Of a stretch of DNA of 41,143 bases, positions 1-15,980 are shown one piece after another. Origin of the DNA: Promethearchaeota archaeon. Its GTDB lineage: Archaea; Asgardarchaeota; Lokiarchaeia; Sigyniarchaeales; SOKP01. The DNA is taken from positions 1 through 41,143 of the forward strand of contig RDOA01000031.1 of NCBI GenBank assembly GCA_011364925.1. Direction: 5' to 3'. A program made the position numbers and the translations under genes. The notes under the pieces were generated by a model, which searched no databases, was not told where the DNA came from, and was given only the letters and a program-made list of their open reading frames with translations. Numbering within the stretch: position 1 is the stretch's first letter; each line of letters opens with the position of its first letter.

Positions 1-404
1 ATTTCCATCTCGATCCGTTGCCGGTTAATAACACCGTTGCAAGGAATTCCTATAATCGTAATCTCGTCTAAATTAATTCTATTTTCAGATGCTAAGTGAA
101 TTAACGCTCTCCCCACGCATCCTTTAGCCACCACTCCTACTTTAAGGTTGCCTTTTTCGGGATCCACGAATTTTGCAACTCTTGGGACGAGATATTTCGC
201 TAGGTTTACATAACAAGTATTGTTCCATAGCAATTTGTCTACGTCTTCCTCTTTGTCGATGATAATTGGTTGAGACATCATCGGTAGCGTTCCTTTTTTA
301 TACCCAATTATCACATCTACCTTTTTTTCTTTGAGCAAGCCTCTTGCGAGTTCTCGAATACTATTCTCTATCTCTTTATTTTCTTCTTCAAGCCCCACGA
401 TCAT
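1..404 (-). CDS. FlxC/FrhB(FdhB)-like iron-sulfur subunit of an Hdr-Flx-type complex; 5' part only, runs off the window start
   Basis: Not in the ORF track. Manual translation from the ATG at 404-402 (TGATG overlap with the mvhD stop; alternative starts ATG 410 or GTG 398) is open to position 1: MIVGLEEENKEIENSIRELARGLLKEKKVDVIIGYKKGT...LLWNNTCYVNLAKYL...KVGVVAKGCVGRALIHL...IIGIPCNG. This is the FrhB-like N-terminal pattern typical of the gene following hdrA-mvhD/flxD. Confidence 0.75.
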   Translation of the reverse strand, partial: MIVGLEEENKEIENSIRELARGLLKEKKVDVIIGYKKGTLPMMSQPIIIDKEEDVDKLLWNNTCYVNLAKYLVPRVAKFVDPEKGNLKVGVVAKGCVGRALIHLASENRINLDEITIIGIPCNGVINRQRIEME

Positions 405-856
405 CACCATTTCTTCTCAAATTTTTTGTTTGGGCCCAATTTTTTCACGATTTCAGTTGCTTTTCGAATCAATACGGCGAAACGCTCGCCTTCTGCAGCG
501 GAAGCCCACATAAAGTTAACTCTTCCAGGTTCTATGCCGAAAAACTCCAACAGTTCTTTCAAAATCGCAAACCTTCGACGAGCTACCAAATTTCCGCTAA
601 TATAGTGGCAATCGCCGGGATGACATCCAGAAACGACGACTCCGTCCCAGCCATCGGTTAAACTCTTAATAATGAAATAAGCGTTAATCCTTCCCGAACA
701 GGGAACTCTCACAATCCTTATATTAGGAGGGTATTGGATCCTACTTACGCCCGCTAAATCGGCTCCCGCGTAAGAGCACCAATTGCATAGGAACGCAATT
801 ATTTTCGGCTCCCATTCTTTACTTTCCGTTACTTTTTCAATAACTTGTTCTGTCAT
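404..856 (-). CDS. mvhD: MvhD/FlxD [2Fe-2S] subunit (copy 1)
   Basis: Motifs FLCNWCSYAGAD, RVPCSGR, GCHPGDCHY and WASAAEG; directly downstream of hdrA. Confidence 0.95.
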   Translation of the reverse strand: MTEQVIEKVTESKEWEPKIIAFLCNWCSYAGADLAGVSRIQYPPNIRIVRVPCSGRINAYFIIKSLTDGWDGVVVSGCHPGDCHYISGNLVARRRFAILKELLEFFGIEPGRVNFMWASAAEGERFAVLIRKATEIVKKLGPNKKFEKKW

Positions 857-858
857 CT

Positions 859-2865
859 TTACTCCCTCCTAGTTATCATTGAGAATATTTGTTCTGAAGA
901 AAATCCTATAATATCTATTGCTGCGCATCTGCAATTTCCTGAACAGGCACCGCAACCTTTACAAAGTGCTTTATTTATTGATGCTACCGTACCAAACCTT
1001 CTATCATCAACAAATTCAATTGCTCCATAGGCACAATTTTCAATGCACATTCCACATCCTGTACATCGATCAGCATGAACCACTGCGAAAAAGGGTTCAA
1101 TCTCTACTTCTCCTTTAGCCATCAGTGAAATTGCACTAGCTGCAGCTCCTTTTGCTTGGGCTACAGAATCAGGTATATCTTTGGGACCTTGCGCTACTCC
1201 TGCTATAAAAATTCCTTCTGTTAAAGTATCAACGGGTCTCAATTTTGGATGTGCTTCTAAGAAGAACCCGTCTGCTGATTTCTGAATTCTTAAAAGACTT
1301 GTAATGGCATCTGAGTCTGCTCTAGGCTCGATACCAGTTGAGAGAACAAACAATTCTACTTCTACTTCAATTGGTTGTTGAAGCAAAGTGTCTTCAGCTC
1401 GGATTATAATATTATGATTCTCAGGATTCTCCCTTACTTCAGCGATTCTTCCTCTAACATAATTAATACCATAATTGGAGGCTGCTGACTCGTAAAATTC
1501 TTCGTATCCTTTACCAAATGCTCGTATATCCATATAAAAAATATAAATATCGGCATCTGGGTGCTTTTCTTTGTATTGCCTTGCTTGTTTGGTAGCGTAC
1601 ATGCAACACACGCGCGAACAATACTGATTTCCTCCTTCTCGGAAATTTCTGCTCCCTACACATTGTAAAAATGCGATACTATGTGGGTCTTTAAGATCTG
1701 AGGGCTTTACAGGTTTTCCAACAACTGGTCCAAAAGAGCTTAGTAAACGCTCCATTTGAAGTCCTGTAATCACATTAGGATATTTACCAAAACCATATTG
1801 CTTGAGTTCGGTCGGATCGTACTCGTCGTAGCCTGTTGCCACAATGATTGTCCCTACCTTAACATTAATGTATTCAGGTTCATCGTCGTACTTAATCGCT
1901 CCTGGTTCACACACATTTTCTCTTGCACAAATTCCGCATTGAACGCAACTATCCATATCAATGGTGTACTGGCTCGGAACGGCTTGAGGAAATGGAACGT
2001 AAATCGCTTTTCTAGTTGCTAATCCTAAATCAAACTCATTTCCAACGGTTATAGGACATGAATCAATGCATATTCCACAACCCGTGCATTTTTCTTGATC
2101 AACATAATGAGGTTTTTTCTTAATCGTTACTTCAAAATTACCTACGTAACCGGACACTTCAGTAACTTCCGAATACGTTAATAATTCAATATTTTTGTCT
2201 CTCGCTACTTCAGACATTTTGGGTGTAAGGATGCAAGAAGAACAGTCCATAGTCGGAAATGTTTTATCAAGTTGCGCCATATGACCACCAATCGTCGGAG
2301 ATCTCTCCACAAGATATACTTTGTAACCTGCAGAACTGATGTTTAATGCTGCATTCATTCCAGTAATACCCCCACCTATGATTAAACAAGCAGGCTCGAC
2401 TTCTACTTTTTGGACCGCGAGTGGAACTAAATTTCTTGCCTTAGCAATCGCTAGTCTTATGTGATCCTTTGCTACTTCATATGCGCCCTCAGGTTCTTTC
2501 ATGTGAACCCAAGTAGAATGCTCTCGAATATTTGCCATCTCAAACAAAAACTGATTTAATCCTGCTTCTTTACACGCAACACGGAAAGTAGGTTCGTGCA
2601 TTCGTGGAGAACAAGCTGCAACAACAACCCGATTAACTAGTCCTGCTTCGATGTCTTCTTTTATCATCTTCTGCCCTACATCAGAGCAAAAAAACTTGTA
2701 TTCGCGACCTACGGCTACATCTGGCAGATTTTTAGCATATTCGACTAAATTTGGAACTGAAACGACACCACCAATATTAACACCACAATGACACACATAC
2801 ACACCAATTTTGGGTTTTTCATTTCCCGTAATATTTAGTTCTTTTTCTTTATCTACTTCTGTCAA
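859..2865 (-). CDS. hdrA: Heterodisulfide reductase subunit A (copy 1)
   Basis: VYVCHCG, ACSPRMHE, NIREH, GGGITG FAD-binding motif, LDKTFPTMDCSSC, QCVGSR, YCSRVCCMY, GPKDIP, and inserted plus C-terminal ferredoxin motifs. TTG start with GGAGG upstream. Confidence 0.97.
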   Translation of the reverse strand: MTEVDKEKELNITGNEKPKIGVYVCHCGVNIGGVVSVPNLVEYAKNLPDVAVGREYKFFCSDVGQKMIKEDIEAGLVNRVVVAACSPRMHEPTFRVACKEAGLNQFLFEMANIREHSTWVHMKEPEGAYEVAKDHIRLAIAKARNLVPLAVQKVEVEPACLIIGGGITGMNAALNISSAGYKVYLVERSPTIGGHMAQLDKTFPTMDCSSCILTPKMSEVARDKNIELLTYSEVTEVSGYVGNFEVTIKKKPHYVDQEKCTGCGICIDSCPITVGNEFDLGLATRKAIYVPFPQAVPSQYTIDMDSCVQCGICARENVCEPGAIKYDDEPEYINVKVGTIIVATGYDEYDPTELKQYGFGKYPNVITGLQMERLLSSFGPVVGKPVKPSDLKDPHSIAFLQCVGSRNFREGGNQYCSRVCCMYATKQARQYKEKHPDADIYIFYMDIRAFGKGYEEFYESAASNYGINYVRGRIAEVRENPENHNIIIRAEDTLLQQPIEVEVELFVLSTGIEPRADSDAITSLLRIQKSADGFFLEAHPKLRPVDTLTEGIFIAGVAQGPKDIPDSVAQAKGAAASAISLMAKGEVEIEPFFAVVHADRCTGCGMCIENCAYGAIEFVDDRRFGTVASINKALCKGCGACSGNCRCAAIDIIGFSSEQIFSMITRRE

Positions 2866-2878
2866 TTTAACAATCCTC

Positions 2879-3835
2879 CTAAGTTAATTGCGCCTTAACT
2901 TTTTCTATAAACGATTCTATAGGTATGAAGGGAGATACTCCCGTTAATTCGTGATTTTTCACTAATCCTAAGAGATTAGGATCAATTCCAAATGATAATC
3001 CTAATAATTGAGTAATGTAAATAACTGGTATCTGATATGGTTCACCAATCATATCTTTATATAAGCTATTTGCCTCCATCTGGCCCAAATCTAGTTGCAA
3101 ATGACAGAAAGGGCAGCAATCAATTATAATATCGGCACCAGCATCTCTTATATTTTCTAATTTTTCTCTTGAGAAGTCAGCTGACACTTCCTTAACAGCC
3201 GTTCTTACTGCACCACCAGCTCCGCAACATTGAAACTTATCTTTATAATCAATACTATTAGCTCCAGTTAATTCTACAAGTTCATCGAGAAATCTTGGGT
3301 CTTCGCATTCCCCTCCCCAAGGTCTTTTATCGCTTGGTTTAACAATGTGACAACCATAATGAACAGCTACTTTTAAATCCTTAAATTTGTGTTTAACAAA
3401 CCCTCTTAAATAATCTAAACCCATATCTTGATATAGTACTTGTACTACATGCTTTGGCTCAATTGATCCCTTGTAATGTCTTCCGACTTTTTCAAGATGC
3501 TCATTAACCATTTTTTTCAAATCGGGTTCGTGTTCTAACTCAAACCAAGCATCCCTAAGCGTACCATAACAACCATTACACCCAGTTATAATATCAACTC
3601 CTAAATCTTCCGCTATTGTAATATTTCGAGCAGCAATCACTAGCCAAGTAGGAATATGAAACGCCCGAAAGACTCCTGGGGCAGGACAACAAGAAGCTCC
3701 TTCTAATTCTAAAATTTCAGCACCCAGATGGTCAAATACTGCTCTGATTGAAGCCTCAATCATAGGATAGCGGTTAGGAGCTACACAACCAAGAAAAAAA
3801 GCGTATCTTCTTTTATTATCTTCACTCATGATCAT
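2879..3835 (-). CDS. hdrB: Heterodisulfide reductase subunit B (copy 1)
   Basis: FFLGC, SCCPAPG, CNGC, HYGCH, CCGAGG and CPFCHLQ CCG-domain motifs. Confidence 0.96.
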   Translation of the reverse strand: MIMSEDNKRRYAFFLGCVAPNRYPMIEASIRAVFDHLGAEILELEGASCCPAPGVFRAFHIPTWLVIAARNITIAEDLGVDIITGCNGCYGTLRDAWFELEHEPDLKKMVNEHLEKVGRHYKGSIEPKHVVQVLYQDMGLDYLRGFVKHKFKDLKVAVHYGCHIVKPSDKRPWGGECEDPRFLDELVELTGANSIDYKDKFQCCGAGGAVRTAVKEVSADFSREKLENIRDAGADIIIDCCPFCHLQLDLGQMEANSLYKDMIGEPYQIPVIYITQLLGLSFGIDPNLLGLVKNHELTGVSPFIPIESFIEKVKAQLT

Positions 3836-3843
3836 TATCCACC

Positions 3844-4452
3844 TTATTTTTCCTCTTCTTTATCTTTTTCAGCCTCAGCCTTTTCTTTCTCTTTTATTTT
3901 TTCGACATTATCCATCAAATCTCTAAAACCGACTGATTTCATTAAATCCTGACATTCCTTGACAGCTTCAGGATGGGTATGAACAGTTGGTGGTAACGGC
4001 GGTAATCCATAAGATTCACGTAAATCTCGCCATTTTTTATTCGCTTCACCGTTAGCAGGTACCCCATGTCCAGTTTCGTAAAATATTTTGTTAGCTAATC
4101 CAAAATGAGCATCCAAAATATGTCCTTCTTCGACAGCAATATTTCTCAGTTTAATAATCATGTCGGTTACTGGTATGTTTCGTGGACATCGCTCATAGCA
4201 AGTATAGCACGTACTACAAAGCCAAATATCAATATCTTCCAAAACAGATTCATCCCCTGTTAACGCTCGTCGAAGAACAGATCGCGTTCGGTACGCTGTG
4301 CGCCTACCTGATGGACAAGAACCAGTACACGTTCCACAATTAATACACGCTCTTAGCTTCTCTAAACCAGCGTCAACAAATTTCTGGGTAATATTGGAAC
4401 TAGTGGATTTATAGACCTTTCGTTTAATATATTTTTCTACATTTTCACTCAT
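3844..4452 (-). CDS. hdrC: Heterodisulfide reductase subunit C (copy 1)
   Basis: CINCGTCTGSCPSGRRT and WLCSTCYTCYERCPR two-cluster motifs; TGHGVP. Confidence 0.96.
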   Translation of the reverse strand: MSENVEKYIKRKVYKSTSSNITQKFVDAGLEKLRACINCGTCTGSCPSGRRTAYRTRSVLRRALTGDESVLEDIDIWLCSTCYTCYERCPRNIPVTDMIIKLRNIAVEEGHILDAHFGLANKIFYETGHGVPANGEANKKWRDLRESYGLPPLPPTVHTHPEAVKECQDLMKSVGFRDLMDNVEKIKEKEKAEAEKDKEEEK

Positions 4453-4759
4453 AGTTAAATCGGATCCCTAATATCATTTCCAATTAGACTTGATAAATAG
4501 TATAAGACGAAGTCTTTACTTAAATAAGTTTGATCAAACTTCTCAATTGATACTCTTAAATTTGAAAAGGTAGTTTGATTAAAAAAATTTATTATGAATA
4601 TAAAATAACCAAATTCCTAAGATTTACTATTTAGTATATTGAATTTTTTTATATAGGCTTAGATTTTTTAATTTTTATATTCAATTATTAGGTAAGATAT
4701 TTATATGACATCAACATTAGACCTATTGTAATCTAATTAAAAATGTTATTGACTTAAAT
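4453..4759. promoter_or_regulatory. Divergent intergenic promoter region (hdrC1 versus the 7TM gene cluster)
   Basis: Very AT-rich 307-nt gap between divergent start codons with several TATA-like words (e.g. TTTATATA near 4648, TTTATATG near 4700). The exact boxes cannot be assigned. Confidence 0.45.
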
Positions 4760-5494
4760 ATGACTCTTCCAAATATTGATATCATAAATGGGCTTACAGG
4801 TTTAGAGATTATTGTTACCGGGTATATCTTAGGTTTTTTCCTTATTTTTAAGCATGCTAGAAAAGCAACTGATGTAAAAGTTAAGAAAAGATTGATTTTA
4901 AGTGGAATTGGTTTAATTTCAGTTTTTCATTCTTGGTTCGGGGTTTCTGCGAGCTTCTTATTAATGATTTTAGGATTCCCACCTTTGGGGTATCCAGCTG
5001 GTGATCCAAATATAGCAGTTCTAGCATATGCTTGGGGTCCTGCTTTGGGTGGAACTATTTGGGCATGGATTGCTTTAGATTTATTTAAGAAAGGACGTTT
5101 AAAAATCCCAATTACGGCCATTGTAGCAATCTTAAGCGTAATTTTCGTTATTTTAATTTATTCCAATCCTTCAACTTTTACATCTTGGAAAGCATCCCCC
5201 AGTGGTTTACCATCAACAGGAATTAGAGGGGCTGCTTTGGCATTATTAGCAGTGGTGTTGATCATAATGGTGGTAATCCTAGGACCAATTATTCTATTTT
5301 CTGCATCGAAACTTGAGGATAAAAGTGCTAAATGGAGGAGATATTCAATGGGAATAGGAGTAATGCTTGTCTCTCTTTTAGGAATTATTGATGCTGGGCT
5401 TTCTGATATTCCATTAATTGGTTTAGCTATAATAAAAGCTTCTATATTTACATCAATATTTCTAATATATGAAGGAATAGATAAGGGATCTTGA
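4760..5494 (+). CDS. Stand-alone seven-transmembrane membrane protein (receptor-like, function unknown)
   Basis: Seven hydrophobic segments counted by eye in 244 aa, with basic loops after TM1, TM3 and TM5 and no soluble output domain. Confidence 0.7.
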   Translation: MTLPNIDIINGLTGLEIIVTGYILGFFLIFKHARKATDVKVKKRLILSGIGLISVFHSWFGVSASFLLMILGFPPLGYPAGDPNIAVLAYAWGPALGGTIWAWIALDLFKKGRLKIPITAIVAILSVIFVILIYSNPSTFTSWKASPSGLPSTGIRGAALALLAVVLIIMVVILGPIILFSASKLEDKSAKWRRYSMGIGVMLVSLLGIIDAGLSDIPLIGLAIIKASIFTSIFLIYEGIDKGS

Positions 5495-5526
5495 ATTATA
5501 TAAACAATAGGGCGTGAAAAAAGAAG

Positions 5527-7254
5527 ATGGAAGTTAAAAAAATAAGTAAAAAAAGGTCATTGCGGCAACGGCTTTTCATAATTATGATTTCCTGTATATT
5601 AATTCCTTTCATACTTTTAACGATTTTCTTAGTATTTCAGTTGCTGACGAATATTGACTATTTTATTGGATTAGGGTACAGTTCCCTTGAAACTTTAAAA
5701 ATTCCCGTGATTATAACCATAATTATTGTAGCAATTATAATCAGTTTTATTATTTTGTTTGCTATAAATGGCATTTCTCGGAGAATTACATCTCCCATTA
5801 TTGAATTAACCAATTCAATAGAAAGAATATCTGAAGGTGATTTAACACAAGAAATTCCACTAAGTGGAAGAATGAGAAGAAATGAGTTTGGCGTACTGGC
5901 TCAATCCTTTCAGGGTTTATTGGTTACAATGCGTTTAGGAAACAAAAGTTATTATCAAGGTAATTTGATGCTTGCTTTCAAAAATTACAATGCAGCTTTG
6001 GAGTTATTTCAAACAACGAAAAATCTCCATGGAGAAGGAATGTGCTTAAATAATCTTGGAAATATTTATAGAAATTGGGGCGATTATGATAAAGCAAGAG
6101 AGAGTTATAATAAAGCAATTAAAATTGGTGAAGAACAAGAGGACATTGCAGCTTTAAGCTCACGTTATAACAATCGGGCTCTTCTTTTTCTTTCAGAAGA
6201 ACGATGGCAAGAGGCAATGGATGATTTTAACAAAGCTATTAAAATTGATGATGAGTTGGGAGATGACTTAGGAATCGCTTCAAGAAAAAGAAATATAGGA
6301 GTGCTTCATATGTTAAAAAATGAATTGGATCTCGCTCAAGAACATCTTGATGAAGCATTTAGACTTGATAGTAAATGGGAAAATAATGCAGGATTAGCAG
6401 AGGATGAGTTCCAACTAGGGAGGCTTAGTCTATTAAAAAGTAATCCAGAGATTGCAGAAAACCATTTAAAAAGTGCTTTAAATTTAGCAAAAAACCTTGG
6501 GAATTACCCTTTAATGAAAAATGTTCTAGAAGCTATGGTACAATTATATGAAAGCCAAGACAATACAACTCTTCATCATAAAGCAGAAATTGAACTTTCA
6601 AAAGTAGATGCTGTGCTTATTCGTAAAAAAGATGTGGTTTTTGTAATTGATCAATCTGGAAGCATGTCTACATGGGATAAAATGACCGCAGCTCGAACAG
6701 GAGCTTTGGGAGTTTTTAATGAAACAATAAACGTTGGAGACCGAGTTGCAATCCTAGCATTTCATTCTCTAATAAATAATCTTCTCAATTTAACAGAGAA
6801 AAAAGGAAATGTTTCACAAATCACTAATATATTTAAATCTTTAGAATCAGTCCCTTATGAGACTTGTTTATATGATGCCATAGCTAAAGCAATAGATATA
6901 TTATTGGGAGCACCACCTCTTTTAGAACAAGAATCTCAAGAACGACAGAAATGGATCATAACTCTGACAGACGGTGAAGATAATAGAAGTAAAAAATATA
7001 ATTCTCGTAAAGTTGCAAGTTATATTCGAAAAGTTGAACCTCCACTCAATTTTATTTTAATTGGAGTAGGACCCGAACTAAAACGAGTTCATCGAAAAAT
7101 GACAGAAATAGTTGATGCGACTCCAAATGGTAGATATATCACGATTTTTTCTGCTAAAAATGTTTCAAAACGAATCGCAGATGCTTTTACAAAGGTTAAG
7201 GAAATCATGGTGTCATCAGAAATAGAAGGATTCATACCAGAGGAGGGATTATAA
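5527..7254 (+). CDS. Membrane protein with 2 TM, HAMP, TPR array and C-terminal vWA domain
   Basis: Two TM helices; HAMP (ITSPIIELTNSIERISEGDL...NEFGVLAQSF); TPR-like repeats (CLNNLGNIYRNWGDYDKARESYNKAI etc.); vWA with MIDAS DQSGS, T-x-LYDAI and LTDGED. Confidence 0.85.
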   Translation: MEVKKISKKRSLRQRLFIIMISCILIPFILLTIFLVFQLLTNIDYFIGLGYSSLETLKIPVIITIIIVAIIISFIILFAINGISRRITSPIIELTNSIERISEGDLTQEIPLSGRMRRNEFGVLAQSFQGLLVTMRLGNKSYYQGNLMLAFKNYNAALELFQTTKNLHGEGMCLNNLGNIYRNWGDYDKARESYNKAIKIGEEQEDIAALSSRYNNRALLFLSEERWQEAMDDFNKAIKIDDELGDDLGIASRKRNIGVLHMLKNELDLAQEHLDEAFRLDSKWENNAGLAEDEFQLGRLSLLKSNPEIAENHLKSALNLAKNLGNYPLMKNVLEAMVQLYESQDNTTLHHKAEIELSKVDAVLIRKKDVVFVIDQSGSMSTWDKMTAARTGALGVFNETINVGDRVAILAFHSLINNLLNLTEKKGNVSQITNIFKSLESVPYETCLYDAIAKAIDILLGAPPLLEQESQERQKWIITLTDGEDNRSKKYNSRKVASYIRKVEPPLNFILIGVGPELKRVHRKMTEIVDATPNGRYITIFSAKNVSKRIADAFTKVKEIMVSSEIEGFIPEEGL

Positions 7255-7718
7255 TGTCTCAACAAAAGAAAAGAAAATTTGGAATTAGGCAAGAAATTCT
7301 TTTGAGCTTTGTTATAGTCTGTGTGATTGCTTTAGGTAGTATTGCTATAACTGCAGCAATATTTAATGAGATTATTGGTAGCAGTATTGTCAGCGCTGAT
7401 CCCGCGGATCAAGCAATAATAGCTGAAACTCTTGAGATAGAATTAGCAATAATATTTATCTCATTATGGCAAATTATCGTGATAAGTCTTTTTGTAGGCT
7501 TAAAACTCTCAGATTCAATAGTAAATCCGATTCACAAATTAACAAACATAGCTTTAAAGTTAAGTACTCACGATCTTAAGACTCTATCTTTTAAAGAGAT
7601 AGATACAGATTTTGATAAAGAATTGGAAGATAAAGATCCTGAATTTGGAAATTTAACTCAAGCTTTCAAAAAGTTAGTGAAGAAAGTTAAAGAAGACGCA
7701 GAAGAAAAGTCAAAATGA
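7254..7718 (+). CDS. Small 2-TM HAMP-only membrane protein
   Basis: Two TM helices then HAMP (IVNPIHKLTNIALKLSTHDL...PEFGNLTQAFKKL) with nothing after it. TAATG stop/start overlap with the upstream gene. Confidence 0.8.
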   Translation: MSQQKKRKFGIRQEILLSFVIVCVIALGSIAITAAIFNEIIGSSIVSADPADQAIIAETLEIELAIIFISLWQIIVISLFVGLKLSDSIVNPIHKLTNIALKLSTHDLKTLSFKEIDTDFDKELEDKDPEFGNLTQAFKKLVKKVKEDAEEKSK

Positions 7719-9810: not shown

Positions 9811-11211
9811 CTAAGAACCTTCTACTTTATCGTGGTATTTATGCCTTAAAGTACTTGCTGCTAAAGTAAAGCGATTAAACAATCCTGCTGGATCTTTAAT
9901 GAATTCTAAAACTTCGTCAGGATCTTTGTCTTTACAGAGTGAACCCAAAGTGCTTATAAACTGCACACCAGCATCCTTTACGCCTGTAGTTGCTCCAAAA
10001 CATCCTAAACAAGGAGCATTGGCTTTATTTGGACAGATCGTGCCACAACCGGCTTGAGTAACTGGCCCTAAACAAACATACCCTTGTTCTAAAAAGCAAG
10101 TATCCATCGTCGATAATCCTTCGTAATCGCGTCTTAATTGAGCAGGTAGTTTATCGGTTATGTCTCGATCGCAATGGCTACATACGGATTTTGTACTAAA
10201 TTTGAAATTAGGATCGTCTCTTAATAAATATAACGCGAGACCAACTATATCGTCAATAATTTCGATTCCAGAGGGAGAAACATCAAGAGCAAATCTTCTA
10301 TCCTCTCCGATTAATACATCCTTTAACTTAAAACTCTTAGGCTCATAGGCTAATCTTTGTAGTATATCTCCACGAAAATAAAAGTTAGTAATGTTTGTTC
10401 CACCCAGAAATAAGTCCGAAAAATGTTGTAAGCTTGCAGCATGGTCTGGGCTTAATGAATGTTCATTGAATACAATTTCTCTTAATTGAATGACTTTTTC
10501 ACCAGGTTTATCCGTTGATTTGTAACAACCATAACAAATATCTCCTTTATTAGGGCACATCAAATCGCACCCCGCTGCTGTAATAGAACCGTAACATAAA
10601 ATATTTTGGTTCAAGAAGCAACCTTCCTCTTTTAAATTGCATGTATTGCAGACACACGCATTTTTATCGAGATTAGCTGGTTCTTCTCCGACTAATGTTA
10701 GCAAATATGAAATAGTAGCAATAATATTGTTAGTAGTTGGGGGACAACCAGGTATGAATACATCTACATTGATGAAATCATCGAGATTAACAATAAATTC
10801 CTCAAAACCAGGAAGATGGTTAGTTGGTTCTTTAGGATCTTCAGTAGTTATAGATTCCGTTTCCATAAATTTTCGATTGACAAGCTCTTCCTTATCGTAT
10901 AAGTTTGCTAAACCTGCGACGCTTCCATAACAGGGGCAGGCTCCAAACGCTACAATTATCTTACATTTCTTCCTCATGAGCTTGGCATTTTCAGTGTCTT
11001 TTTTAGTTCTTACGACGCCTTCAATAAATCCTATTATAATATCATTATCAGATCTTTCCTCGAGAGATGCTAACTTATTATCTACCACTGCTGGCCAATA
11101 AACAATATCTAATTGTGGTAAGATGGGCAGTAAACCTAAATGAGCGTTCAATAAACTCTGGTGACAGCCCCAACAACTGCTTAGCTGCATGAAAGCTACT
11201 TTTACAGGCAT
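9811..11211 (-). CDS. mvhG: MvhG-like [NiFe]-hydrogenase small subunit with duplicated C-terminal Fe-S module
   Basis: SSCWGC, IEG, GACPCYG, IPGCPP; two copies of CxxC...CFLxQxxxCxGxxTxAGCxxxCPNK..CxGC. Confidence 0.8.
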   Translation of the reverse strand: MPVKVAFMQLSSCWGCHQSLLNAHLGLLPILPQLDIVYWPAVVDNKLASLEERSDNDIIIGFIEGVVRTKKDTENAKLMRKKCKIIVAFGACPCYGSVAGLANLYDKEELVNRKFMETESITTEDPKEPTNHLPGFEEFIVNLDDFINVDVFIPGCPPTTNNIIATISYLLTLVGEEPANLDKNACVCNTCNLKEEGCFLNQNILCYGSITAAGCDLMCPNKGDICYGCYKSTDKPGEKVIQLREIVFNEHSLSPDHAASLQHFSDLFLGGTNITNFYFRGDILQRLAYEPKSFKLKDVLIGEDRRFALDVSPSGIEIIDDIVGLALYLLRDDPNFKFSTKSVCSHCDRDITDKLPAQLRRDYEGLSTMDTCFLEQGYVCLGPVTQAGCGTICPNKANAPCLGCFGATTGVKDAGVQFISTLGSLCKDKDPDEVLEFIKDPAGLFNRFTLAASTLRHKYHDKVEGS

Positions 11212-11304
11212 TTTTTTGTTCCTTTATTCAATATTATATCTTTTAAGTAATATTTATTCTAATTTAAAGTATTATCAATTGAATTAATGATAATTAGTCT
11301 TTGA

Positions 11305-11985
11305 TTACCCAGATTTTTGAGATCTTTTAAGGAGTTCAGACCAAAAAGGTTCCTTATATTCACCGGAATAGTTAATTTTATCTACTTTAACCTTAATTGC
11401 GCCAGACGAACACGCATTCTCACACGCGCCACATTTAACACAAGTGGCTCGCACGTTAAAATCTACCTTTCTTTTCTTACCTTTATCGCTTACTTTTTCT
11501 TCTTTGAAAAACGCCCCAGTTGGACATACTTCAAAACATGACATACAAGAAACGCATAAATCCCAATTAATCTTTACTTTCCCATCGACGTATACTTTTG
11601 CCATAGTACCCGATTTCTTACATTTGACTATTTGAGATTCTAATTTTGGCAAGACTTTTGCTTGAACAATTTCGATTTCTTCTAAAGGAACAGGTTTACC
11701 ATCTTTTTTCAATGTAATTGCTGAAAACGGGCACATATAAGCACAAGTTCCACAATAAGAGCATTTTTCTGCATCGGGGATGTCAGGATACATATCTTCT
11801 GTCTTTTTTTTGACTAAATTATGATGATATTGTTTTATAGCTTCTTGAGGACAGACTTTTGAACAAACATAACATCCAACGCACAAATCCTTATTAAATT
11901 CAATCGCTTGGTTTTTCGAATAGAAACTTAAAATTACTTCATTCTTATGATCGTTAACAATTCTTTCAACTCTAGGATAAGACAA
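11305..11985 (-). CDS. Polyferredoxin with four [4Fe-4S] motifs, resembling the N-terminal half of FwdF
   Basis: CVGCYVCSKVCP, CSYCGTCAYMCP, CVSCMSCFEVCP, CVKCGACENACS; FwdF-like CPFSAITLKKDG...PKL segment; TTG start. Confidence 0.8.
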   Translation of the reverse strand: MSYPRVERIVNDHKNEVILSFYSKNQAIEFNKDLCVGCYVCSKVCPQEAIKQYHHNLVKKKTEDMYPDIPDAEKCSYCGTCAYMCPFSAITLKKDGKPVPLEEIEIVQAKVLPKLESQIVKCKKSGTMAKVYVDGKVKINWDLCVSCMSCFEVCPTGAFFKEEKVSDKGKKRKVDFNVRATCVKCGACENACSSGAIKVKVDKINYSGEYKEPFWSELLKRSQKSG

Positions 11986-11987
11986 GT

Positions 11988-12413
11988 TTAATTACCTCTT
12001 CGTATTGGGTTAGGTCCTAACTCTTTAAGTTCTTTTGTGTATTCCTTAGCAACTTCAGTTAAGTAAACTCCTTCTGAAGCAGAAACAAATATGTATCTTG
12101 CTCTCTTGGGATTAATTCCAAACTGTTTTAAATACCTATGAAGTATAGGCATTTTTCGAACTGTTTTAAGGTTTCCTTCTATATAATGGCAATCTCCAGG
12201 GTGGCAATGGCTAATCAGTACACCATCCGCACCATTCATTAAAGCATTTATAATGAATTGGGGATCAATTCTTCCTCCACACATTACTCTCACAATTCGT
12301 AAATTTGCTGGGCGTTGCATTCGCGAAGTCCCAGCTCCATCTGCACCTGCATAAGAACACCAATTACAAAAAATTCCTAAAATATAAGGATCAAATGCTT
12401 CTGAACTACTCAA
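11988..12413 (-). CDS. mvhD: MvhD [2Fe-2S] subunit (copy 2)
   Basis: FCNWCSYAGAD, RVMCGGRID, HCHPGDCHY, VSASEG. Start reassigned from 12458 to the in-frame TTG at 12413, giving a short 8-nt overlap with the end of hdrA. Confidence 0.92.
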   Translation of the reverse strand: MSSSEAFDPYILGIFCNWCSYAGADGAGTSRMQRPANLRIVRVMCGGRIDPQFIINALMNGADGVLISHCHPGDCHYIEGNLKTVRKMPILHRYLKQFGINPKRARYIFVSASEGVYLTEVAKEYTKELKELGPNPIRRGN

Positions 12414-14433
12414 CTTCAACTTCCTCTTTTTCTGGTTTCTTAGGAATAGCGGTTTCAATCATGGGTAATATCTGTGCATCGCCAAAATGGTTTTGAATAA
12501 TCGCTTTAGAAGGGCAGCCTGCTACGCAAGTACCGCAACCTTTACACAAGATATCATTTATTTCAGCCACGTTTTCAATTTCGTTGAAGGTTATGGCATT
12601 AAAAGGACATAAACTAATACATGATTTGCACCCTGCGCATTTATGACTTAAAACTATTGAGTAATAAGGAACAATCTCAACCTCACCTCGTGCCATTAAG
12701 GTTGAAGCGCTAGAAGCAGCAGCCTTAGCTTGAGCAACAGTATCGGGAATATCTTTTGGTCCAACAACATTTCCAGCAACAAAAATACCTTCAGTTAGTG
12801 TATCAACTGGGCGTAATTTAGGATGAGCTTCCATTAAGAATCCATCTTCTGTTTTAGTTGCTGTTACATTAAAAATTCGAGCTATATCATCGATATCTTC
12901 TCGAGGTTCTAAACCGACTGACAATACAACCATATCTACTTCTAGCTCTAATGGTCTTTGTAACGTGGTGTCTTCAGCTCGTACGATGACATTTCCATTC
13001 TCTGCTTCCAATAATTCTGCAACTCTTCCTCTGATGAACTTAATTCCATAATTTTTAGCCGTGTCGTTGTAAAACTCTTCGTATCCTTTTCCAAATGCTC
13101 TAAGATCAATATAGAAAATAAATATTTGCGCATCGGGATGTTTTTCTTTGTAGGAACGAGCTTGTTTTGTAGCATACATGCAACAGACTCGGGAACAATA
13201 TTTTCTTCCTTTTCCAGTAAACTCACGGCTCCCAACGCATTGTACCCACACAAGTTTTTTTGGTTCTTTTTGATCTGAAGGTCTTCTCACCTTTCCTCCA
13301 GTTGGACCGTATGAGGAAAGTAATCGTTCCATCTGAAGTGCGTTTATTACATTTTTTATTCTTCCAAATCCATATTGTTTCATTCGTCTAGCATCGTAAG
13401 GATCGTATCCTGTCGCTAATATAATAGTTCCAACCTTTATATCTACATATTCGGGTTTATCGTTATATCTTACTGATTTTGTAGGACACACTTCCTTACA
13501 AATCCCACACCGGATACAATGGTTCATGTCGATTGTATATTGACCTGGGACTGCTTGAGGAAAAGATAAATAAATCGCTTTTCTTGGTTTCATCCCTAAA
13601 TCGAATTCGTTTCCACACACTACAGGACAAGTGTCTACACAATGTCCACAACCTGTACACGTATCCTGATCGATATAATGGGGATATTTAACGATTTTAA
13701 CTTGAAAATTACCTACATAGCCATCGAGTGATACAACCTCAGAATAAGTCATCAACTCGATATTTGGATTACGTGCTATTTCGCTCATTTTAGGAGTTGT
13801 AATACAGGATGAACAATCCATAGTTGGAAATGTTTTATCAAGTTGAGCCATATGACCCCCTACCGTAGGTGATTTATCAACTAAGTAAACTTTGTATCCT
13901 GAATTTGCCAAATCCAAAGCTGCGTTAATTCCAGCTATACCTGCTCCAACAACTAATGTAGAAGGTTCTACTTTTACAGTCGTAACTTCTAACGGCTTAA
14001 GCTCACTAACTTTCGCTACAGCCATCCTTATGTGGTCTTTTGCTATTTCAGTAGCTCCAGGAACATCGTTCATAGTTACCCACGTGCAGTGTTCCCGTAT
14101 ATTAGCTTGTTCGAAAAGGAACTTGTTTAGACCACCTTCTTCACATGCTCGCCTAAAAGTTTCTTCGTGCATTCTTGGAGAACAAGAAGCTACTACGACT
14201 CTATTAATTTTTCCATCTTTGATATCTTCCATAATCATGCCTTGTCCGATATCTGAGCACATGAATTTGTATTCGCTCGCAAGTACAACATAGGGCAAAG
14301 TTCTTGCGTAATCACACAATTTTGGAACATCTACGACACCCCCAATATTAACTCCACACCAGCAGATATAAACTCCAATTTTAGGGGGTTCTCTCCCATT
14401 GAGTTCAGCTAGATTCTTAACTTTTGTTACCAT
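12406..14433 (-). CDS. hdrA: Heterodisulfide reductase subunit A (copy 2)
   Basis: VYICWCG, SCSPRMHE, NIREHC, GAGIAG, LDKTFPTMDCSSC, QCVGSR, YCSRVCCMY, GPKDIP and ferredoxin motifs. Confidence 0.97.
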   Translation of the reverse strand: MVTKVKNLAELNGREPPKIGVYICWCGVNIGGVVDVPKLCDYARTLPYVVLASEYKFMCSDIGQGMIMEDIKDGKINRVVVASCSPRMHEETFRRACEEGGLNKFLFEQANIREHCTWVTMNDVPGATEIAKDHIRMAVAKVSELKPLEVTTVKVEPSTLVVGAGIAGINAALDLANSGYKVYLVDKSPTVGGHMAQLDKTFPTMDCSSCITTPKMSEIARNPNIELMTYSEVVSLDGYVGNFQVKIVKYPHYIDQDTCTGCGHCVDTCPVVCGNEFDLGMKPRKAIYLSFPQAVPGQYTIDMNHCIRCGICKEVCPTKSVRYNDKPEYVDIKVGTIILATGYDPYDARRMKQYGFGRIKNVINALQMERLLSSYGPTGGKVRRPSDQKEPKKLVWVQCVGSREFTGKGRKYCSRVCCMYATKQARSYKEKHPDAQIFIFYIDLRAFGKGYEEFYNDTAKNYGIKFIRGRVAELLEAENGNVIVRAEDTTLQRPLELEVDMVVLSVGLEPREDIDDIARIFNVTATKTEDGFLMEAHPKLRPVDTLTEGIFVAGNVVGPKDIPDTVAQAKAAASSASTLMARGEVEIVPYYSIVLSHKCAGCKSCISLCPFNAITFNEIENVAEINDILCKGCGTCVAGCPSKAIIQNHFGDAQILPMIETAIPKKPEKEEVEVE

Positions 14434-14448
14434 ATTTATATACCTTCT

Positions 14449-15402
14449 TTAAGCAGAATCTCCTATTTTAGTTAATACAGGTTTCATGGGTGTAAATGGA
14501 GGTACTCCTTTTAACTCTGGGCTTTTAATTAGGCCCATTTCTTCTGGAGTCATACCTATTGCTAATCCTATTAGTTGAGTAAAATAAAGAACTGGAATAT
14601 TAAAAGGAGCACTGATTTTATCTTTAAAAATATTATTTACTTCCACTTGTCCTAAGTCGAATTGAAGGTGACAAAAAGGACAACCAGTTATTATTACATC
14701 TGCTTTAGCAGCGGTCATATTTTCCAGTTTTTCTCGGGTATAATCGAGGGATAGTTCTTTGAAAGCACCTCTCACTCCACCACCCGCACCACAACACATA
14801 AATTTATCTTTATAATTTAGACTTTTACATCCCGAAATTTCTACTAATTCGTCAAAAAACGTTGGATTCTCGCATTCCATATCCCAAGGTCTTAATTTAG
14901 CAGGTTTTGTGAGATGGCAACCGTAATGAACAGCAAGATTTAGATTTAGTGGTGTTTTTCTCCCGTATTTTGTTCTATTTCTTATTTTTTCGGGACCGAT
15001 ATCGTGATACATAATATCGACAACATGTCGGATTTCGATAGTTCCTTTAAATTCACGCCCGATTTTTGCGAGATGTTCGTTAACTTTTCTTCTTTTTTCC
15101 TTGTCCTCTTTTAATGTATGATTTACTTCGAGTAAACTTCCATAACACCCGTTACACATTAACGCGATATCTAAACCGAGCTCTTCGGCAATCGTTATAT
15201 TTCTTGCTCCTACAACAAGCCATGTTTCGATATCAAATCCTCGGAATACGCCAGGAGCAGGACAGCATGACGCTCCTTTCATATCCACCAATTCTATTTT
15301 AAATTTTTCGAAAACAGCTCTAGTTGCTCTTTCAATAAAAGGGTATCTATTAGGGATAACACACCCTAAAAATAATGCAAATTTTGAGTCATTACTAGCC
15401 AT
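14449..15402 (-). CDS. hdrB: Heterodisulfide reductase subunit B (copy 2)
   Basis: LFLGC, SCCPAPG, CNGC, HYGCH, CCGAGGG, CPFCHLQFD. Confidence 0.96.
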   Translation of the reverse strand: MASNDSKFALFLGCVIPNRYPFIERATRAVFEKFKIELVDMKGASCCPAPGVFRGFDIETWLVVGARNITIAEELGLDIALMCNGCYGSLLEVNHTLKEDKEKRRKVNEHLAKIGREFKGTIEIRHVVDIMYHDIGPEKIRNRTKYGRKTPLNLNLAVHYGCHLTKPAKLRPWDMECENPTFFDELVEISGCKSLNYKDKFMCCGAGGGVRGAFKELSLDYTREKLENMTAAKADVIITGCPFCHLQFDLGQVEVNNIFKDKISAPFNIPVLYFTQLIGLAIGMTPEEMGLIKSPELKGVPPFTPMKPVLTKIGDSA

Positions 15403-15407
15403 AATTA

Positions 15408-15980
15408 TTAACTTTCCTCTTCACCTTTTTTTTTTTCGTAATCACCTACTCCTGTTAGCTTATCAAATTCCGTACTCTTTAAAAGAGTTTGAATTTCTTT
15501 TTCTGCTTCAGGATATTGGTGCGTAGTTGGTGGAAGTTCATTTAACTTATGATATTCCCGCAATTTTTTCCATTTTTCTTCGTTAATAGGAACACCATGT
15601 CCTGTGTTGTAAAACATTTTACAGAGCGCGATATGAGGTTCTTGCATATACCCTTCTTTGACTGCCAAATTTCTAAGAGAAATTATAACATCCGTAACAG
15701 GTACACCACGAGGACATCTTTCCAAGCATGTATAGCAAGTGCTACAGAACCATAACTCTTTATCTGAAAGTATTTCTTCTTTTAATCCTAGCTGTACTTT
15801 TTTCATTAAAGATCTTGTTCTAGAAGCAGTTCTTCTTCCACTTGGACAACTGCCAGTGCAAGTTCCACATTGAATGCACGCACATAACTCTAAATAACCA
15901 GCGTCCCTTAGTAATCTAGTGAGATCATCACTCACATATGTAATCTTTTCTGGTTTGATATTTTCCATTACACTTTCCAC
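15408..15980 (-). CDS. hdrC: Heterodisulfide reductase subunit C (copy 2)
   Basis: CIQCGTCTGSCPSGRRT and WFCSTCYTCLERCPR. GTG start, or ATG at 15968. Confidence 0.95.
   Translation of the reverse strand: MESVMENIKPEKITYVSDDLTRLLRDAGYLELCACIQCGTCTGSCPSGRRTASRTRSLMKKVQLGLKEEILSDKELWFCSTCYTCLERCPRGVPVTDVIISLRNLAVKEGYMQEPHIALCKMFYNTGHGVPINEEKWKKLREYHKLNELPPTTHQYPEAEKEIQTLLKSTEFDKLTGVGDYEKKKGEEES

Follow-up and report, generated by a model that had tools for sequence, protein, structure and literature searches.

How can a membrane receptor pass a signal on when no enzyme is encoded with it? The question is raised by four adjacent genes in a stretch of 41,143 nucleotides (nt) from a Promethearchaeota archaeon (assembly GCA_011364925.1, contig RDOA01000031.1, positions 1 to 41,143), which is called the window here. 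HAMP domains drive kinases, chemoreceptor arrays, cyclases and phosphatases. Two of the four genes encode HAMP proteins, and scans with Pfam, NCBIfam and PADLOC find no enzyme domain (kinase, cyclase or other) and no methyl-accepting chemotaxis protein (MCP) domain among the four products. The genes are:

4760-5494, forward strand: gene for P0001, a seven-transmembrane (7TM) protein of 244 amino acids (aa)
5527-7254, forward strand: gene for P0002, 575 aa, with two transmembrane (TM) helices followed by HAMP, TPR and vWA domains (2TM-HAMP-TPR-vWA, hereafter HTV)
7254-7718, forward strand: gene for P0003, a small 2TM-HAMP protein of 154 aa
7866-9698, forward strand: gene for P0004, a beta-propeller and zinc-ribbon protein of 610 aa

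A first-pass annotation of this DNA had described the first three genes as a kinase-less receptor module. The trio is as it had been seen; the fourth partner, P0004, had been overlooked, and the trio derives from a phylum-wide pair of receptors that carry dCache sensor domains. The 7TM gene appears exactly where both receptors of the pair lose their outside sensors, which points to a replacement of the input. As a whole, the earlier interpretation is partly supported.

The cassette as a conserved unit

The three reading frames on the forward strand, the 32-nt gap and the TAATG overlap reported earlier are all confirmed by the map of open reading frames and by reading of the sequence. The stop codon of the P0001 gene (TGA, 5492-5494) is followed by 32 nt and by the start codon of the P0002 gene (ATG, 5527), while the stop codon of the latter (TAA, 7252-7254) shares a base with the start codon of the P0003 gene (ATG, 7254-7256) to give TAATG, an overlap by which P0003 is predicted to be translationally coupled to P0002. 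The spacer between the P0003 and P0004 genes is longer (147 nt), AT-rich and contains a T-tract, so that P0004 possibly has a promoter of its own.

Nine public Asgard contigs were located with an alignment of the 7TM protein, and in 9 of 9 the order 7TM, HTV, small HAMP protein, propeller is kept over whatever part of it the contig includes. The genome survey is based on a draw of 400 Asgard genomes; the short HTV of the window type occurs in 13 of them, from two genera only, and the 7TM gene lies directly upstream of it in all 12 genomes that can be checked, the thirteenth contig starting within the HTV gene. The earlier interpretation had been made to depend on such co-conservation, and the genes do stay together wherever their neighbourhood can be read. 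The small HAMP gene adjoins HTV in 25 of 25 loci, and a P0004-type gene adjoins the receptor pair in 20 of these 25 across the phylum. The flanking genes vary between genomes and the cassette remains intact, as do the reading frames of the short cassettes in the 13 genomes. The ratio of nonsynonymous to synonymous substitution rates (dN/dS) is 0.06-0.19 over all four genes, which indicates purifying selection; it is lowest for P0003 (0.06-0.10) and reaches 0.11-0.17 for P0001. The four genes very probably form one functional unit.

Loss of the dCache sensors

A search with the vWA part finds the HTV family in 117 of the 400 Asgard genomes, in many families and mostly as open frames of 870-990 aa, so that the search for HAMP-TPR-vWA architectures and their neighbours that the first-pass annotation had proposed does yield relatives, among them a long, dCache-bearing module. 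In 17 long-form loci the long HTV is directly followed by a partner of 467-527 aa, and in most of them a propeller/zinc-ribbon gene stands beside the pair. The extra ~350 residues of both long proteins are a dCache_1 domain placed between TM1 and TM2 (E 3e-19 and 1.5e-24 in long orthologues), and the long HTV and its long partner are paralogous across the whole TM1-dCache-TM2-HAMP part (E 2e-17). The dCache domain is absent from P0002 and P0003, whose outer loops span only ~18 and ~23 aa, which bears out the earlier observation that neither protein has a sensor of its own. The alignment indicates that the short forms have lost the whole ectodomain exactly, with TM1 and TM2 retained.

Maximum-likelihood trees built from the columns common to short and long forms place the short HTVs in one clade (support of 100 in the Shimodaira-Hasegawa approximate likelihood ratio test, SH-aLRT), nested in the long forms and sister to the HTVs of a neighbouring family; the short partners likewise form one clade nested within the long partners. 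The comparison of loci and trees shows that the ancestral, phylum-wide form was an adjacent pair of dCache-HAMP-TPR-vWA and dCache-HAMP paralogues, usually accompanied by a propeller/zinc-ribbon protein, and that both receptors lost the dCache ectodomain on the same branch. Such a loss in both genes at once is to be expected of two ectodomains that functioned jointly. Between long and short forms there is no change in the TPR-vWA arm or in the propeller partner, so that the output side seems conserved.

Several observations concern the long-form loci themselves. One genome, G231, has a long cassette (C16:17469-18134, locus L111) together with a short 7TM cassette (C43/C100; loci L032 and L083), which suggests distinct roles for the two, the short form looking like a paralogue and not like a simple replacement. 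At L107:293-2290 (genome G143) a 665-aa HTV-like protein follows the long HTV in place of the dCache-HAMP-only partner. A gene for a PLP (pyridoxal phosphate)-dependent protein of 599-646 aa that resembles ornithine/arginine decarboxylases (Orn_Arg_deC_N, E 2e-27) adjoins the receptor pair in ten long-form loci among L101-L109, L113 and L114 (e.g., L103:10774-12582 and L105:10779-12617), which belong to families f13, f15, f16, f18 and f31 where these are listed; this neighbour hints at a link with arginine or polyamine metabolism. The cassette of the window has no such gene. In four long-form loci of one family, genes of histone-deacetylase type and of M24 peptidase type are also near.

The receptor pair and its output arm

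The larger HAMP protein, P0002, has two TM helices with an outer loop of ~18 aa between them, and carries the following parts:

5773-5919, forward strand: HAMP domain just past TM2 (residues 83-131; Pfam HAMP, PF00672, 37.5 bits against a cut-off of 25)
5926-6561, forward strand: TPR region (residues ~134-345; TPR_12 E 5.5e-22, TPR_1 E 5.3e-21)
6631-7119, forward strand: cytoplasmic vWA domain (residues 369-531; VWA_2 E 2e-11, VWA E 5.6e-10)
7216-7251, forward strand: acidic C-terminal tail, SSEIEGFIPEEG

HAMP helix 2 enters the first TPR through a junction, R136-x-G138-N139, in which R136, G138 and N139 are invariant among 18 sequences, as is G145. The MIDAS (metal-ion-dependent adhesion site) residues, D375-x-S377-x-S379, T446 and D482, are complete and invariant in an alignment of 18 phylum-wide relatives, so that the domain combines a vWA fold with a complete set of predicted metal-site residues. 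The AlphaFold2 model of this domain has a predicted local distance difference test (pLDDT) value of 88.7, and with Foldseek it is matched by integrin I domains, ArnB and ITIH1 at E ~1e-10; a phmmer search of the vWA part against PDB sequences gave no match, and a fold search was required. By the model and its fold matches, the vWA fold is genuine. With the Pfam cut-offs passed and the MIDAS residues invariant, the output of TPRs and a MIDAS-intact vWA that had been ascribed to the larger HAMP protein stands. Its acidic tail is disordered in the model (pLDDT <50) and has an E(V/I)EGF core that most of the 18 aligned sequences, which come from distant families, retain; the tail could serve as an internal or a partner ligand of the MIDAS site.

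The smaller protein, P0003, also has two TM helices, with an outer loop of ~23 aa and a HAMP-like region at residues 87-145. Taken alone, this region is under the Pfam cut-off (16.9 bits, E 0.008); it aligns to the HAMP domain of P0002 with a connector 8 residues longer, and in the long P0003 orthologue of locus L017 the HAMP domain is above the cut-off (26.8 bits). P0003 and all its orthologues stop ~10 residues past HAMP helix 2, in agreement with the earlier description of a HAMP protein without output, and 36 of the first 85 residues of P0003 are invariant among 8 orthologues. Were it a truncated remnant, homologues with a kinase or MCP domain would be expected; the homologues never carry either, and the long ones are dCache-HAMP proteins with the same end point.

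No MCPsignal match is found in P0002 or P0003, so that the output is a TPR-vWA arm in one and nothing in the other. Kinase models match only the TM-HAMP parts and far under their cut-offs (e.g., AdeS, 28.8 bits against 500), and a HisKA/HATPase_c kinase core is absent both from the window proteins and from those long orthologues to which the Pfam scan extended. Among the PADLOC models of anti-phage defence, P0002 has generic TPR matches only, and P0001, P0003 and P0004 have none. HTV and P0003 are each present in single copy in the host genome. Two contigs of giant-virus metagenome-assembled genomes (MAGs) in IMG/VR also encode relatives that span most or all of the HAMP-TPR-vWA part of P0002: L115:5001-6530 covers P0002 residues 60-491 (E 3e-14) and L120:5001-6512 covers residues 61-561 (E 5e-31), at 23-24% identity and with E values taken among candidates.

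The 7TM protein and its family

P0001 has seven hydrophobic helices by hydropathy, and its AlphaFold2 model likewise has seven helices with a mean pLDDT of 86. The predicted topology places the N-terminus outside and the C-terminus inside, with basic loops after helices 1, 3 and 5. The protein has no Pfam, NCBIfam or PADLOC match, and the 28 members of its family that were scanned have no Pfam family in common. The top of the Foldseek list consists of G-protein-coupled receptors (GPCRs), with weak values (E ~1e-3, TM-score ~0.5, root mean square deviation ~7 Å), and by VIA the GPCRs (Z 12-13), microbial rhodopsins and adiponectin receptors are tied at Z 11-13; profiles of rhodopsins and GPCRs do not match P0001. 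The modelled fold is thus best described as a generic bundle of GPCR/rhodopsin/PAQR type. Two more specific identities were considered and set aside: a HisKA_7TM assignment, an ESM Atlas lead (score 0.88, 10% of one cluster), was not confirmed, and a retinal-binding lysine was dropped, the helix-7 residue K226 being an arginine in the family member P0088.

Close homologues of P0001 come from Asgard MAGs in 90 of 90 cases, and the wider family is present in 164 of the 400 Asgard genomes; the 134 other genomes sampled from the family to which the window belongs all have it. The host genome, G000, carries ten members, P0001 included; the other nine are:

C38:38991-39773, P0001 paralogue
C91:49367-50092, P0001 paralogue
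C47:4765-5487, P0001 paralogue
C8:3545-4261, P0001 paralogue
C100:5322-6083, P0001 paralogue
C24:44863-45906, P0001 paralogue
C59:120189-120899, P0001 paralogue
C82:903-1940, P0001 paralogue
C27:113792-114535, P0001 paralogue

Their neighbours are genes for a tRNA methyltransferase, an enolase-superfamily enzyme, a PLP decarboxylase, a GTPase, a ribonucleotide reductase and others. The notion that the whole 7TM family consists of receptors tied to signalling is rejected because of these unrelated neighbours, which instead indicate that one member of a pre-existing 7TM family was recruited to the cassette. Judged by its distribution, the family is a large, unnamed and Asgard-specific family of membrane proteins that has expanded locally. 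One of its residues, D211 of P0001, assigned to helix 6 by manual reading, is nearly invariant (at least 90% of 28 wider-family sequences), and in a reading of the alignment on the model the conserved residues of P0001 group at the outer face, in the N-terminal LPNIDI, in YAWGPA and in the GLPxTG loop.

The association of the 7TM protein with HTV is also seen in a single polypeptide. P0094, a protein of 806 aa that came up when 1.8 billion representative proteins were searched with a profile, has a 7TM part (residues 3-237) and, from residue 243, a complete short HTV that is 54% identical to P0002. In the tree P0094 is the deepest branch of the short HTV clade, which implies that the 7TM association is as old as the short form; no 7TM-family gene is found in the 17 long-form loci. 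By the distribution of positive charges in the loops, the C-terminus of the 7TM protein and the N-terminus of HTV are both predicted to be cytoplasmic, matching a fusion in frame. A metagenome scan with P0094 found no relative. A search for further fusions among longer homologues gave none, a negative that by its nature is weak evidence. In a prediction of the complex of HTV residues 1-140, P0003 and the 7TM protein, the median was 0.31 against a mark of 0.32, with controls at 0.00, a result that speaks neither for nor against binding. The earlier claim that the 7TM protein is the receptor has gained real comparative support from the same-branch dCache loss and from the in-frame fusion.

The propeller/zinc-ribbon partner

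P0004 is a soluble protein and the fourth conserved member of the cassette. Profile scans give weak matches to propellers and a match to a zinc ribbon at its C-terminus. Across loci the propeller partner has a length of 354-624 aa. A middle region of ~250 aa in P0004 is missing in a close relative (L029:9121-10185) and, among neighbouring families, in forms of 380-394 aa (L015:9073-10257). In distant families the propeller protein has 436-531 aa (L105:4959-6404), with its gene upstream of the pair or divergent from it. In the propeller gene at L022:5297-6718, on a public contig, a string of bases is masked or unknown (X in the translation), which makes the middle of the gene unreadable.

Proposed mechanism and alternatives

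The model proposed here is that of a kinase-free, four-gene transmembrane cassette. The 7TM protein would be the new input, taking the place of the lost dCache sensors, and would hand its stimulus on, inside the membrane, to P0002 and P0003 as a heterodimer. The HAMP four-helix bundle would relay the change down a continuous helix to the TPR-vWA arm, which P0002 alone possesses, and the binding properties of the TPR surface and of the MIDAS site would be altered, most likely toward the propeller/zinc-ribbon protein P0004. The HAMP heterodimer, the contact of 7TM protein and HAMP proteins and the protein-recruiting output are steps that we infer, and the full account, from input to output, is held with slightly better than even confidence. 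A more exacting version, in which P0001 is a 7TM receptor of GPCR or rhodopsin type that, without any enzyme and through a HAMP heterodimer, switches a TPR-vWA arm recruiting the propeller protein to the membrane, is quite improbable.

Several points weigh against this account. The loss of dCache and the gain of the 7TM gene are one evolutionary event and provide no repeated correlation, and physical contact between any two of the cassette proteins is presumed. The fusion is known from a single metagenome protein on one contig, and a stop codon lost by sequencing error is possible in it, since HTV keeps its start methionine, only four residues past the point where the 7TM homology stops. Values of Z 11-13 by VIA can be reached by helical bundles through their arrangement alone or by chance, P0001 has no recognisable ligand-binding signature, and other members of the 7TM family have no link to signalling genes. 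On the output side, the propeller gene was not detected beside the pair in 5 of the 25 loci, and in the window, behind its 147-nt spacer, it may be transcribed separately.

The likeliest of the alternatives reverses the direction of the signal. Proteins with vWA domains and a MIDAS site, such as integrins, signal inside-out, and the HAMP pair with its TPR-vWA arm might in the same way take a cue from the cytoplasm or the membrane (e.g., the propeller protein, or a protein or metal that the MIDAS site binds) and control the 7TM protein as its output, which could be a channel, a transporter or a lipid-handling protein. The four genes would be one unit whichever way the signal runs; a 7TM family of mostly orphan genes without signalling links is what a membrane effector would be expected to have, and the near-invariant D211 of helix 6 has been taken as compatible with transport. 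However, the 7TM gene arises exactly where the outside sensors are lost, neither the propeller partner nor the cytoplasmic arm differs between long and short forms, and the conserved residues of the 7TM protein cluster at its outer face, so that inside-out wiring is considered rather unlikely.

It could also be argued that the short HAMP pair senses a cue within the membrane itself, such as lipid state or envelope stress, in the manner of intramembrane-sensing histidine kinases, with the 7TM protein serving for stability or assembly and not as the sensor. The outer loops of ~18 and ~23 aa would suit such sensing, as would the strong conservation of the membrane part of P0003, with its 36 invariant residues among the first 85. 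The known intramembrane-sensing histidine kinases generally receive their stimulus through accessory membrane proteins, which argues against autonomy; in addition, the strict linkage and the fusion make the 7TM protein integral to the unit, and its dN/dS of 0.11-0.17 reveals strong constraint. Autonomous sensing by the pair is accordingly quite improbable.

That the short cassettes are what is left of dCache receptors in decay, or act as constitutive scaffolds that have stopped signalling, and keep the 7TM gene as a mere neighbour by common descent, would fit the loss of a sensor domain (the change expected in decay), the narrowness of a clade confined to two genera and the descent of every co-occurrence from one ancestor, but it is very unlikely in view of the intact frames in 13 genomes under purifying selection (dN/dS 0.06-0.19), of two deletions that both retain TM1 and TM2 exactly, of MIDAS and HAMP motifs that are invariant, of a cassette that stays whole while its flanks change, and of the long and short cassettes kept together in G231.

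Surroundings of the cassette

The host is an Asgard archaeon of Lokiarchaeia type: G+C is ~33%, the named homologues are from Promethearchaeota, Lokiarchaeota and other Asgard MAGs, and the cassette lies between HdrABC-MvhD clusters. The following features flank the four genes:

4453-4759, forward strand: AT-rich intergenic region of 307 nt between the cassette and a divergent hdrC-like gene
404-4452, reverse strand: cluster of HdrC-HdrB-HdrA-MvhD type, first flank
9811-15980, reverse strand: cluster of HdrC-HdrB-HdrA-MvhD type, second flank

The intergenic region is likely to be the promoter region of the cassette; a sigma-70 promoter scan has no bearing on this in an archaeal host. The cluster at 9811-15980 also encodes a polyferredoxin and a 466-aa Oxidored_q6 (MvhG-like) protein.

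Significance and comparison with known systems

A search of the full-text literature found no paper on HAMP-TPR-vWA proteins or on this Asgard module. The present analysis contributes the strict linkage with a 7TM gene, the finding that both ectodomains were lost once and together, the fusion at the base of the short clade, the derivation of the 7TM protein from among a set of paralogues and the estimates of selection. HAMP is coupled in this case to protein-docking domains only, in an arrangement conserved across Asgard archaea. The cassette also presents what looks like a rare sensor swap made by nature: the two receptors of the pair lose their sensors together and gain a 7TM partner, with one fused form, and from this a direct and testable hypothesis on the input and on the function of the heterodimer follows; if the more exacting version of the account is true, the change from dCache to 7TM would be a natural example of exchangeable input modules. 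With 244, 575, 154 and 610 aa, the four proteins are a compact set for reconstitution. Should the output be recruitment of the propeller protein, the cassette would bear on the coupling of receptors to adaptors before eukaryotes, as a receptor-to-adaptor recruitment pathway in their closest archaeal relatives.

Among known systems, sensory rhodopsin II-HtrII resembles the cassette in having a separate 7TM protein beside a 2TM HAMP transducer with almost no outer loop, and in the lateral signal that is proposed to pass within the membrane and then down the HAMP domain. Unlike rhodopsins, P0001 has no sequence match to them and its helix-7 lysine is not invariant; unlike HtrII, the transducer of the cassette ends in a TPR-vWA arm and not in an MCP domain, has no CheA or CheW partners in the cassette, and is accompanied by a second, different HAMP protein, HtrII being one homodimer. 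The intramembrane-sensing kinases (e.g., BceS with BceAB, LiaS with LiaF) share with it the minimal loops and an input proposed to come from a co-encoded membrane protein. They differ in that the archaeal cassette has no kinase core or response regulator, and in that its accessory protein is a 7TM bundle and not an ABC transporter. As it lacks a rhodopsin signature, an MCP domain and a kinase, the cassette is a member of neither group, though its proposed way of working is closest to theirs. Bacterial dCache_1-HAMP receptors, which include chemoreceptors and Cache histidine kinases, have the TM1-dCache_1-TM2-HAMP order found in the ancestors of both HAMP proteins, but the likeness is confined to the outside: the dCache domain has been lost in the window proteins, and even the ancestral output was a TPR-vWA arm or nothing, and at no time a kinase, cyclase or MCP domain.

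For the output side, the closest parallel is the ArnA-ArnB system of Sulfolobus, a vWA/MIDAS regulator with a zinc-ribbon partner and no enzymatic domain (PMC12852372, PMC6509490; PDB 8s05). In ArnB, a soluble protein, beta-sandwich and C-terminal domains accompany the vWA domain, and its control is by phosphorylation, via the FHA domain that ArnA carries (PMC12852372, PMC6509490). As in the cassette, an archaeal cytoplasmic vWA domain is combined with a zinc-ribbon partner, and the P0002 vWA has ArnB as one of its best structural matches (E 1.6e-10), whereas the vWA domain of the cassette is tethered to a membrane HAMP protein and is found with no FHA domain, kinase or beta-sandwich. Of the archaeal systems that have been studied, ArnA-ArnB comes nearest as a pair of a cytoplasmic vWA regulator and a partner with a zinc ribbon.

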